A DNA stretch of 64,000 bases, taken from contig JAZDJU010000098.1 of the NCBI GenBank assembly GCA_043803685.1, positions 1 through 64,000 of the forward strand, read 5' to 3'. Shown piece by piece: positions 2 through 32,363 of this stretch; within the stretch, counting starts at the first letter, position 1, and each line of letters begins with the position of its first letter. Under the pieces are notes generated by a model, which saw nothing but the letters and a program-made list of their open reading frames with translations, did no database searches and was not told the origin of the DNA. The stretch comes from Candidatus Omnitrophota bacterium (lineage in GTDB: Bacteria > Omnitrophota > Omnitrophia > Omnitrophales > Aquincolibacteriaceae). The position numbers and the translations under genes are program-made.

Positions 2-3000
2 CTTACAGGTGAAGCGCCTTTAAAGCCCCGCTCCGAAGCTCGCACAGTCGATGAAGCCGCTCGCGGAGAAATAACGCGTTCGGAAGTTCGGAAAGGGGAA
101 GATGAATTTCTGTTTGATTTGTTGCGAAGTCCTCTGGCGCCTGATTTTCTGGATTCGATCTGGCATGGGACGACCTCGATGGCGCTTGGATCGATCTTGA
201 AAGAAGGAGCCATCCTTTCCAAGTCTGCCATGCGCGAGAAGGACCTGGCATTCTGGACCGCGATGGAATCCACGGAATTGAGCAAAGATTCGGTTTCATT
301 TGCGTATGACACAGATATCGAAAAGGCGTGGAAACAGTACGCTGGGCCTCGCAAGATGTGGGATCTGGAGACCGCCCAAGAAATGGTCCGAAAAGCGAAG
401 CTGGATCCGGAGATTTTTAAGAATTTAATTCAGATCGAAGAAGAACGTATTAAAACCTGGAATGCCATGACGGAAGAGGAACGGGTAGATCTCAAAAAGA
501 GATTTGAGGCTCAATATCCCGTGGTCCTGGGGGTTGTCTCGCCCGACGGAGTGAAGAGCCCTCTGAGATCCAGTGTGAAGGAATTCATATCCAAAGGGCC
601 GGAATTCCATCTTTTCGATCCGGTGGGTAAGAATGGCGACCGTTTGACCTTTATTGCTGTTCCGTTTGCCAAGATCGAGGAAACCAAAAATATGATCCGG
701 CAAAATCCTCCACAAAAGCTTACCGCGGAACAGCTGAATGATCTGCTAGATCGACGCGTGATCGCGATCGAGGCGCTCGAGGCTTTCAGCTATCCGTCTG
801 CCCAGATCGATGGTTTTTTGACTGCCGAAGCGGCTTCAGCAAAACCAAGCTTTCGCGAAAGTTGGTTGCGTGAAAAGTGGAAGGGGCTCGAAGAAAAAGA
901 CCGCGGGCCTTTTCTTGAACGCTTGAAGGCGTACTTGGAGCCTGCTCAAGAAAAACCTGCCGAAGTCCGCCCCACCGATTCCAGACCCGGTTTGGAGCCA
1001 GGGGGAAGTGGGCGTTCCGAGGTCCGGCGGTCGCAAGCGCGGCAGGGGAGAACGTTTCCATCGCGGGCGCCGGCACTATTCCAGCGCTATCGGACATGGA
1101 TCGTGGGATTTGTTTTGCTGGGGGTGCTGGGTCTGCATATCGGGATGCTTTCTCAGTACAGGTCCCAAAACGCACGTGTGTACGATCTCCAGAATTATCA
1201 GGAAAAGATTGCGGTTGGAAATGAAAATATTGCGGCTTTGCAGAAGGATGGCTGGATCTTCGCTTCGAACATGGGCCCCTGGTACGAGAAAAATAAAGAA
1301 GGCATGCTTTTGACGTTGTCCTCCGGAGGGTATCGCGTCGAGGGTTCCGAAATCCGGCAATTTTCAAAGCCGGACCCCTCAAAAAAAATATTCGATTCGG
1401 CTATGCTGAAGGGGGTCATGCTTTTTGGCAAGGATGGCGAGGCGCGTATCGTTCCGATCGAAAAATTCGAGGAGAAGGACTTTCTAGCCTCCGAATGGCC
1501 CAACGCATTTCAGGCCGGGCCCATGGCCATGACGAACGGGGTCATGAACTCCAAGATCAAGGATTGGCATTCGGGTTTCTGGAAAGGCCGGAAGGCCCTT
1601 ATCGGGGTGGATGAAAGCGGTAAAGTGTACACGCTTGATCTTTATGGATGGGATATTTTGGGGGTGACGGGACCTACTTCGGAGCGTCTTATGTCAGCTG
1701 TCATAGAATGGGCAGCGGAAAATGATATTCAGGACGCTCTCTTTGTGGACGGCGGAACCACCAAACCTGGGTTTGGAGTTAAAAGTCCTCCTTTCGCTCT
1801 TATGATGAAAAAAGGGCCGCGAGCGTCTTCGTCGTTGGTTGGAGTGGAGACCGCGCCTGTTTCTCCGAAGATTCCTGCTACGATCGCATCCATTCCGATC
1901 GTTCCCAAAACTCCTACGGTGAAAAGCGTATCGGAAAAACCGAAACAAGTTTCGCCTGCGACGAGCGCGTCTGGAAATGTTCGGCAGGCTGTGCTAAAAG
2001 ATCCTCCCACGACAAAGCGGTCGGCTTTTAAGAAGCCTGTGCCTCCTCCCACTCGCCAGAAGGTTCCGCCGAAGGTGCAGGCCTCGAGGCGTTCCGAGGT
2101 GAGAGAAAACGAGGCGGCGAAAGCTACGGCGCAGGAATTTGAAGCGGGGATCGCAAGTGTGCAGGGGGCGCTGAAGGGTATGACGTTCAGCGGTATTCGC
2201 AAGATCGTGCAGAACCTGGGGGATCGCGCGGCGCAACTTTCCGCCGAGATGCAAGTGACGGCGATCCTGACATGGGGACTTGTGCGGCAGGGCGATGTGA
2301 AGGCCGCGATCCGGATCTTGGGAGAATTTGCGGGGCTCGTCGATAGTACAGACCTTGTCAAGCAACTGCAGAAAGCGGTGCCTGAATCTATTCTGACGAT
2401 CAGCGCTGAAGGCGGGAAAGCGGCGTGGATCCAGAGCGGGTTTGCTGACAAGGCATCGGCCGAGTCATATATCCGGAAACTCTTTTTCACGCATCTCTGG
2501 AATCCCGCGACTGATCTCAGATTGTTGGTGTTGGGCGGCACCGTGACGGCGGCGGAGATCAACGGAATGATCAAATCGGTCGCGTTGGAGTTCGGCAAAC
2601 CAGAATTTGCGCGTCGATCCGAAGTTCGGGTGAGCCAGGCGAAGAGCATGAAAGAGAAAAGTGTGGCGGCGGCTTTCTTGAGCGGCTATCTCGTTTCGGG
2701 GACTGGGAGTGCGTTTGATGTTTTGGGGTTGGATCCCGACCGGATCAATTTCATACAGTTCTTTGAAGAAGATTCGGTGAACGGAGACCCGCGGGCCCTC
2801 AGCTCTCTTGTGAAAGCCTCGCAGAGAGTTTATGGGAAAGATTCATCGGAGGCCGTCAAGTTGCTTCGGGCGGCGGCAGAATCTCCTGACCAAAAGTCTG
2901 GCTTTGTTTACAAACAAAATCAATTCCGGATCACTCAAAACAGCCTTCTCAGCGCCTTCAAAGCTGTCGCGGATCTGTTCCGGGCCTTCCAGCAAATATC

Positions 3001-32363: not shown

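Follow-up and report, generated by a model that had tools for sequence, protein, structure and literature searches.

Giant proteins from Omnitrophota have been described as "multi-enzyme metabolic clusters", some of whose metabolic enzymes are predicted to be extracellular (Nielsen and Lui, 10.64898/2026.06.07.730766), and their cleavage has been posed as an open question, with C39 and S8 domains suggested (West-Roberts et al., 10.1101/2023.11.21.568195). The available text of the former makes no mention of a motif, cleavage, polyprotein, linker or TIKI head, that of the latter contains no junction motif or TIKI head and has the word "motif" once, in a reference title, and the accessible parts of three further accounts of giants (Seymour et al., PMC10066038; the lipocone paper, PMC12419801; 10.64898/2026.06.04.730025) describe no junction motif. 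The present study analyzes the opening 64 kb of contig C98, from a Candidatus Omnitrophota genome of 2.89 Mb (G000), here called the window, which opens with three giant open reading frames (ORFs) on one strand, ORF1 to ORF3, followed by housekeeping genes, tyrS to lpxD. A pentapeptide, RSExR, recurs throughout these giants, and on sequence evidence it is a strongly selected punctuation code in a family of proteins composed of a head, a row of cassettes and a tail. The family with its junction motif appears to be undescribed; no published description of the motif was found in the literature as far as it was available, and preprint supplements, which were outside the scope of that search, could bear on this.

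Several known systems share parts of this organization. Viral polyproteins are matured by trans-acting proteases such as picornavirus 3C, potyvirus NIa, poxvirus I7 and pS273R of African swine fever virus (ASFV), and they too hold unrelated whole proteins in one ORF with a short lineage-specific consensus at the joints, whereas the giants are a cellular multigene family with an export signal and a fixed head and tail. The plastid polyproteins of Euglena, RBCS and LHC, combine one targeting signal with many units and a conserved linker serving several genes, and a separate peptidase removes the linker after transport (PMC4938576, available part); these differ in being eukaryotic repeats of one protein with decapeptide linkers, while the units of the giants are unrelated and turn over fast. 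MARTX toxins have conserved ends around a variable row of modules that are released by proteolysis between them (PMC5218395, available part), and likewise in the giants the heads and tails of orthologues are conserved and the cargo between is not. No Pfam family of the MARTX repeat regions occurs in ORF1–3, the head being a globular TIKI-type fold, and no MARTX cysteine protease domain (C80) occurs in Pfam scans of the window giants or of 42 chunks of 10 other giants. The giants further have a Sec-type signal and up to 28 joints with a strict five-residue motif, whereas MARTX is cleaved after Leu, and the evidence here favors a reader acting in trans, whereas the MARTX protease acts in cis. 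Polymorphic toxin systems also recombine a constant trafficking and peptidase region with variable cargo (Zhang et al., PMC3482391, available part), but the giants have many internal cassettes rather than one C-terminal toxin, and their cargo is metabolic and signaling. Archaeovorins (West-Roberts et al.), from the same phylum, share the signal peptide, an unannotated N-terminal region and a cargo of glycogen synthase, glycosyltransferase, kinase, receiver, HEAT and methyltransferase domains; they differ in having at least 30,000 amino acids (aa), a SecA DEAD domain and an upstream locus resembling a type II secretion system, compared with 4,251 and 5,358 aa and no SecA family here, and the giants were found to contain neither of the peptidases proposed for them, C39 and S8; S8 and C39_2 were likewise not found in five whole genomes. 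In the window the genes downstream of the giants are housekeeping genes, and the region upstream of ORF1 lies beyond the contig. By analogy, then, the giants resemble a viral or Euglena polyprotein with MARTX-like architecture, having, as motif-cleaved polyproteins do, a conserved short motif at whole-protein boundaries, and lack defining features of both MARTX and Archaeovorins.

An earlier note on this DNA had listed 41 RSExR sites, and all 41 translate as stated; by composition 0.30 would be expected in the three giants, which total 10,612 aa. On the + strand, as are all features below, they lie at 29, 77, 1013, 2090 and 2615 in ORF1 (2..3013), at 5315, 5447, 5954, 6521, 6773, 7211, 7355, 11015, 11624, 13169 and 14888 in ORF2 (3356..16111), and at 25 positions in ORF3 (16287..32363), namely 18186, 18567, 18852, 19185, 20469, 20787, 21270, 21810, 22533, 22998, 23598, 23976, 24264, 24534, 24945, 25275, 25743, 26136, 27723, 29010, 29445, 29832, 30378, 30717 and 31641. 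Eight of eight RAExR/H variants were also recovered by translation (ORF2: 11066, 13283, 15038, 15161, 15227; ORF3: 18159, 23076, 27819), and the single RSExR that had been noticed in the housekeeping part is indeed in TyrRS at 32768, the only one in 32 downstream ORFs (9,991 aa), which also hold two RAEYR. Over the whole genome 17 giant ORFs (76,279 aa) hold 162 RSExR where 1.6 would be expected, and the 1,512 other ORFs of at least 300 aa hold 11 where 13.3 would be; the proteome scan that the note had proposed thus gives about 100-fold enrichment in head-bearing giants, with ordinary ORFs at expectation. The 17 were chosen by presence of the motif, and an independent check with a profile of the head domain found 15 ORFs with a head, 13 of them with the motif; of the other two one is cut by a contig end just past the head and one is a gene without cargo, and the remaining four motif-bearing ORFs are 5′-truncated. 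There was no RSExR in the large head-less ORFs of the genome (5,861, 5,124, 3,333 and 3,018 aa). The giants, about 17 per genome and 2 to 10 thousand aa long, are scattered among housekeeping genes and in G000 occupy about 8% of the bases. The largest (L022, C59:30379) includes a stretch of 5,152 aa without a motif, which suggests a large unit that stays whole.

The motif lies between proteins rather than within them. None of 103 inner motifs fell inside a Pfam stretch, compared with 11.8±3.1 at random (30 stretches, from the nine giants that had Pfam hits; the count excludes giants with none, as well as four fragments and the ends of three giants that the scans did not cover), so that in the hidden Markov model part of the domain overlay suggested earlier the motifs are non-random. 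Similarly, none of 139 inner motifs was inside a block shared between giants (random 9.6±2.8), and 14 of the 139 were at the ends of such blocks (random 2.9±1.6). As expected from the note, the motif brackets three large enzymes. In ORF2, the glycogen synthase module (13283..14887) matches a stand-alone gene of the same genome over residues 5–488 of 497, the nearest motifs lying 8 aa ahead of the match and 16 aa beyond it, and the hybrid sensor kinase module of 1,220 aa (7355..11014), with a transmembrane (TM) segment, PAS domains, HisKA, HATPase and receiver, has no internal motif; because the synthase matches nearly end to end and the multi-domain kinase is uncut, the unit is the whole protein and not the domain. 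The third is the ORF3 hexokinase module (26136..27722), with DFGGTN, ND, GSG and DGS. All three have their usual catalytic motifs. The motif was also absent from the N-terminal domain, with none in 34 heads. The stronger statement, that the motif never interrupts a domain, holds statistically with exceptions: a match to a stand-alone two-receiver protein spans a joint, 3 of 71 DNA repeat blocks cross a motif, and one motif is within a conserved tail of another giant, to which we return.

Selection on RSExR is at the protein level. With x in the set VMAILT, position 1 was Arg in 157 of 165 and position 5 in 157 of 170, with Lys at neither Arg; codons of the final Arg were CGN in 108 and AGR in 49 (n=157), with no AGY where 13 were expected under independent bases (P 2e-6), and all 127 matches to the RSExR DNA pattern in giants were in the coding frame. 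Because the final Arg follows the genetic code, Lys does not substitute and the pattern is restricted to frame, the motif is best read as a peptide signal. The x residue was hydrophobic rather than polar by 149 to 13 in G000, and no strong residue preference followed the motif. Another way to separate proteins could be internal translation starts or ribosomal skipping with no protease, as x is encoded by ATG or GTG in 80 of 157 G000 sites, but we regard this as highly improbable, since there are fewer Shine–Dalgarno-like words upstream than expected (185 vs 235), third positions in the flanks are not A/T-rich as they are at real gene starts, and in related genomes x is Ser or Ala (G030), polar (G013) or Leu (G042, G082, G112).

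Comparison of sampled related genomes, labeled G0xx, showed that the motif itself changes. The RSExR DNA pattern, which misses Leu and polar x, was at least three times control in 48 of 57 family genomes. Elsewhere the giants had RPE[SA]R (6/7 in G030), RSExR with polar x (10/10 in G013, x hydrophobic to polar 1:24, a genome of the same genus as G000 with heads up to 59% identical), [RK]SELR (4/4 in G042), LSD[SA]R (2/2 in G060), [AG]xSLG (7/7 in G046, 7/7 in G054, 3/3 in G051), GxSLG (3/3 in G041, 4/4 in G045) or [AG]ARLA (2/2 in G091). In a quick tree of 55 heads, with support by Shimodaira–Hasegawa-like approximate likelihood-ratio test (SH-aLRT) only and heads of nine distant genomes left out, four G030 RPESR heads each paired with a different G000 RSExR paralogue (SH-aLRT 98–100), so that four motif changes are required, and by these alignments the motif follows the genome and not the head paralogue. 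Because it changes in concert across the paralogues of a genome, one trans-acting reader per genome with drifting subsites is favored, and we lean, with no great confidence, towards the giants being cut at the joints by one shared, sequence-specific peptidase acting in trans. The idea of MARTX-like self-processing by the N-terminal domain, in which each giant's own TIKI head would cut its chain in cis as the cysteine protease domain does in MARTX, is rather improbable for the same reason: parallel shifts of specificity would be needed in at least four diverged paralogues of G030 and in 10 of G013, and no head alignment column separated motif classes (0 found vs 1.1 for random sets of four, a comparison of low power). 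The same head is also present where no motif was detectable, in some giants and in the gene without cargo, and TIKI members include esterases and non-enzymes. What does stand of that idea is that the head resembles a TIKI hydrolase that is intact; no complete giant lacks a head with its catalytic set preserved, none of 34 heads contains the motif, and RRSP shows that the fold can be a site-specific endopeptidase (PMC6254334, available part).

The arrangement of hydrophobic segments, called with a crude hydropathy predictor, is what would be expected if modules had N-termini of their own. At 19 of 156 joints a helix started no more than 40 aa past the motif (random 5.1±2.3), while at 4 of 156 one ended no more than 40 aa ahead of it (random 5.2±2.1); in other RSExR genomes the corresponding counts were 10 of 222 (random 4.0±2.0) and none, and in AxSLG genomes a helix followed 6 of 128 motifs (random 2.2±1.5). 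Odd helix counts outnumbered even ones by 23 to 6 among helix-bearing modules, and signal helices in the window start 7–24 residues past the motif. A lipobox was present in 2 of 36 near joints against 1 of 99 elsewhere, both in window modules with a lipoprotein-type signal at the start, 6521..6772 of ORF2 (LAAC) and 21810..22532 of ORF3 (MAGC), each 9 residues past the motif. Enzymes of cytosolic type, for example tandem receiver domains, stand behind the signal peptide with no intervening helix. In one giant (L029, C49:8547) the head is followed by four tandem receiver domains with a motif on each flank, that is, cytosol-type signaling behind an export signal. If the chain stayed intact, each joint would face the opposite side of the membrane from the one before, so the modules look built for separation before membrane insertion. 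An alternative explanation could be that the motif is not cleaved and marks where a single chaperone, translocase or secretion ATPase, common to the whole genome, docks or pauses as it feeds the uncut chain through one module at a time. This would account equally well for genome-wide sharing and boundary position, the strict C-terminal -SA/-AA of the giants also looks like a handle for a machine, and SecA-like domains have been reported in giants (10.1101/2023.11.21.568195, available part). Even so we consider it unlikely, as an uncut chain could hardly use single N-terminal helices and lipoboxes that closely follow the motif, or enzymes of cytosolic type that come after an export signal. The five-position strictness with no Lys for Arg in G000 also resembles protease subsites, of which such strictness is typical.

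Complete members have a Sec-type signal (judged by eye and hydropathy), a head of about 550–600 aa, cassettes and a tail, and the head was found in 61 of 61 close relatives and in 112 of 151 genomes sampled across the phylum; in the ESM Atlas it falls in unnamed clusters whose commonest taxon is Candidatus Omnitrophota. Residues H40, E68, R459 and H487 were invariant in 56 of 56 aligned heads, spaced His-x27-Glu and Arg-x27-His, nearly the spacing of the catalytic H3902, E3930, R4001 and H4030 of RRSP (PMC6254334, available part). The first acid of the RRSP set varies in heads (D, E, S, T or N; Ser in ORF3, Thr in ORF2 and Asp in most). An AlphaFold2 model from the 56-head alignment had a predicted local distance difference test (pLDDT) of 86.5 and a parallel beta-sheet core with flanking helices, where a single-sequence model was unusable (pLDDT 36.5). 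A wide structural search with the model gave modest Z values, HopBA1 8.5 (root-mean-square deviation 4.0, 167 aligned), ChaN 8.2 (5.8, 180), EreC 7.9 (4.1, 169), Bcr136 7.8 and Bcr135 7.3, all five within the top six rows, followed by RRSP at 5.8 and PMT lower. Foldseek against the PDB gave nothing at E≤0.001, with Bcr135 at ranks 2 and 9, Pfam ChaN was hit by 13 of 56 heads at a loose E≤1 (best 2.5e-4) with no Pfam match above cut-off, and the head profile against sequences of solved structures gave nothing meaningful. A TIKI fold is nonetheless well supported, and the head shares its predicted fold and His/Glu/Arg/His set with the TIKI superfamily (HopBA1, ChaN, erythromycin esterases, Bcr135/136, RRSP C2 and PMT C2), while differing in an insertion of about 300 helical residues and in the variable first acid. 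In the window, ORF2 has a predicted Sec signal peptide at 3356..3451 (basic n-region, hydrophobic core, AFA end) and the head at 3452..5314 (HIQTAH..VEG..GIE..ERD..GGFH), and ORF3 has them at 16287..16370 (VANA end) and 16383..18011, with invariant His (16500), Glu (16584), Arg (17757) and His (17841) and the large helical insertion.

At the other end, SA or AA terminated 14 of 14 complete giants and 21 of 1,474 ordinary ORFs, and a C-terminal amphipathic helix with that ending was seen in all complete G000 giants and most sampled relatives; the ends resemble ssrA/ClpX or Prc C-terminal tags. The tail domain had no Pfam or Atlas family. The family member with no cargo (C114:46201-48417; L081:1202-3418) consists of signal, TIKI head with invariant QD(V/I)HxH, and tail, and ends in -KKAA. 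It is strongly conserved, and 47 of 56 family genomes have it once; in many cases it stands head-to-head with a giant and is neighbored by the same pair of small genes. Its product may be a structural or accessory part of the system.

No reader was evident among the candidates considered. Pfam scans of the window giants and of the 42 chunks contained no peptidase family, and no dedicated peptidase was recognized by eye among ORFs flanking giants, of which only those of the window were scanned for families. C39 was rejected, its weak hits being in 2 of 5 genomes and in another type of giant, whose adjacent RGAFF does not differ between RSExR and AxSLG genomes. That other type, of 5,124 aa in G000 and with neither head nor motif (C72:62711-63766; also L151 and L152), has a C39-like domain with HFGQSA and AH(V/I)xGxH, then conserved RGAFF and hydrophobic helices, in three genomes; the domain has Ser where Cys is usual, and from its sequence the end looks like a cis-processed tip of toxin type. 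The search for the cargo-less gene, scoring 14 candidates per genome and all candidates in five genomes, did not find it in G013, in five g15 genomes or in 19 genomes of other families (E≤1e-45).

A fixed head, comprising signal peptide and TIKI fold, and a fixed tail enclose whole-protein cassettes joined by RSExR, and under the favored mechanism one sequence-specific peptidase common to all giants of the cell would cut the chain at the joints. The cut would follow the last Arg, since that residue is common to RSExR, RPESR and LSDSR and signal helices begin 7–24 residues later, and it would precede membrane insertion, since TM modules mostly have one helix at their start and joints of an intact chain would alternate in side. 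The target of the released enzymes and anchored proteins, on its surface or inside it, would be a host or prey cell, and they are called effectors because a predatory or episymbiotic lifestyle is reported for the phylum. Candidates for the reader would be a single master TIKI head acting in trans or an unrelated peptidase. The fullest version is offered only tentatively: a cellular polyprotein system in which dozens of paralogues load hundreds of captured enzymes and membrane proteins after a single export signal, a lineage-specific peptidase reads RSExR, RPESR, LSDSR, GxSLG or ARLA and releases effectors in the host or prey, and the joints double as points of DNA exchange. If true, this would be a virus-like polyprotein strategy at proteome scale in a bacterium and a source of new sequence-specific proteases. 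The module-delimiter part of the earlier note's reading is borne out in that the motif bounds whole proteins, edges duplicated and swapped cassettes, is selected at peptide level and in many cases precedes a new signal or anchor helix. For the question whether Omnitrophota giants function intact or as fragments, the motif gives exact candidate cut sites; it also lets unannotated giants be divided by rule into individual proteins that can be annotated and folded, and offers a comparative route to the reader, whose specificity must drift with each genome's motif.

Several observations weigh against separation by a common peptidase. S8, C39_2 and TraB were each found in 0 of 5 genomes, and the cargo-less head gene, considered as a universal reader, was not found in several RSExR users (G013, G107, G039). 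By the method used, no shared motif emerged in the head-bearing giants of G147, G153, G066 and G074. The RPESR/LSDSR/ARLA set has no helix enrichment (2/57 vs 1.8), positive-inside charge bias is equivocal (9:5 and 4:5), and the model does not account for how hydrophobic modules would get through the cell's own Sec channel to a host. One G030 giant (L065, C2:29300-44900) uses RSE[LM]R five times and not RPESR; its GC is higher, its cargo is conserved in a genome from a different class (G099), it has a tail, -LLATMA, in common with a G054 giant, and it may be misbinned or transferred. One motif lies within the conserved tail domain of the giant at C59:46947, where about one chance hit is expected. 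In that tail (L021, residues ~4443–4590) the usual boundary motif has decayed to PSEVR, a further motif is 19 aa upstream, and the new RSEVR is where orthologues have unrelated or half-similar residues. Lastly, the Ser codon is TCN in 155 of 157 sites and the first Arg is CGY in 135 of 157, and a flip in G/C skew is centered on the motif (z 8), which a pure protease model leaves with no explanation.

This flip is in synonymous third positions: over some 20 codons ahead of the motif C is abundant and G scarce there, and past the motif the bias is inverted (0.275 vs 0.002±0.034). It persists after amino-acid control, is unlike the pattern at ordinary gene ends, and was present in 24 other RSExR genomes (z 6.1), weak for AxSLG (z 2.9) and absent in G013. 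In-frame heptamer repeats were rejected as its cause, as it stays once they are removed, and a hairpin of RNA or DNA at the joint was rejected, none exceeding controls; own-end, native and random end pairings folded alike for 136 modules, with no covariation across the joint. No hairpin-forming recombination site built from cassette ends, as in an integron-type array, was thus seen here. The flip and the TCN-only Ser suggest that, in addition to peptide selection, some process acting on DNA makes joints as copies of those already present. That the motif should be mainly a scar of in-frame cassette insertion or recombination, with little peptide role, is improbable. Codon bias and skew flip are in its favor, as are 13 ends of DNA homology blocks at nucleotides 7–17 of the motif and duplicates that lose identity right after it, but motif conservation itself can extend alignments, so that block ends do not prove a site-specific mechanism. 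Against it are the final Arg with no AGY, the restriction to the coding frame, and the Ser of AxSLG, which in G046 uses both AGY (32) and TCN (30), and neither hairpin nor cassette-end complementarity was detected, nor was any recombinase noticed beside the window giants.

Cargo turnover was high. The 496 modules of 65 proteins from 30 genomes formed 407 families, 348 of them singletons, a further point in favor of the scar reading, and 15 of 133 G000 modules had a match in another sampled genome. Close orthologues had heads 52–65% and tails 41–74% identical and almost no common cargo, and these comparisons indicate a cassette array swapped rapidly between a fixed head and tail. Third-position GC content was 0.554 in modules, 0.616 in heads and 0.614 in ordinary genes. 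Two ORF3 modules are duplicated within the gene, with DNA identity kept up to the closing motif and lost right after: 18852..19184 at 20469-20786, with 44 of 45 nucleotides identical ahead of the motif and background level beyond, and 22533..22997 at 23076-23597. Cargo of other giants (L021, L023, L026, L027, L028) included CofD-like, beta-CASP nuclease, DnaJ, Rce1-like, PrmA-like methyltransferase, glycogen debranching, epimerase, nucleoside diphosphate kinase and TPR modules.

ORF1 is 5′-truncated by the contig start (at least 1,003 aa) and ends in -SKAA; its module at 1013..2089 has an N-terminal anchor helix and a weak match to NAGPA-like phosphodiester glycosidase (PF09992, E 1.7e-4, below the Pfam cut-off), and its tail module, 2615..3013, ends AA-stop. 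ORF2 (4,251 aa) ends in -SKSA, with a tail module at 15227..16111 (SA-stop) that has no Pfam family. ORF3 (5,358 aa) ends in -AHSA, and its tail module, 31641..32363, with no Pfam or Atlas family, shares 41% identity with the corresponding tail in an orthologous giant (G019), and the aligned part begins exactly at the last motif. No immunity genes were seen beside these giants. Right after tyrS, downstream of ORF3, are GldA/GldF/GldG-like ABC transporter genes (33615-37998), below family cut-offs. In-frame tandem repeats of period 7, with a G-rich arm often followed by a C-rich arm, occur in the window at 3821, 4732, 5162-5230, 7308, 13194-13270, 14913-15020, 15113, 17215-17330, 17636-17700 and 36707, that is, in head loops, in short inter-motif modules and, near 36707, in the housekeeping region; those in heads correspond to low-confidence loops of the head model.

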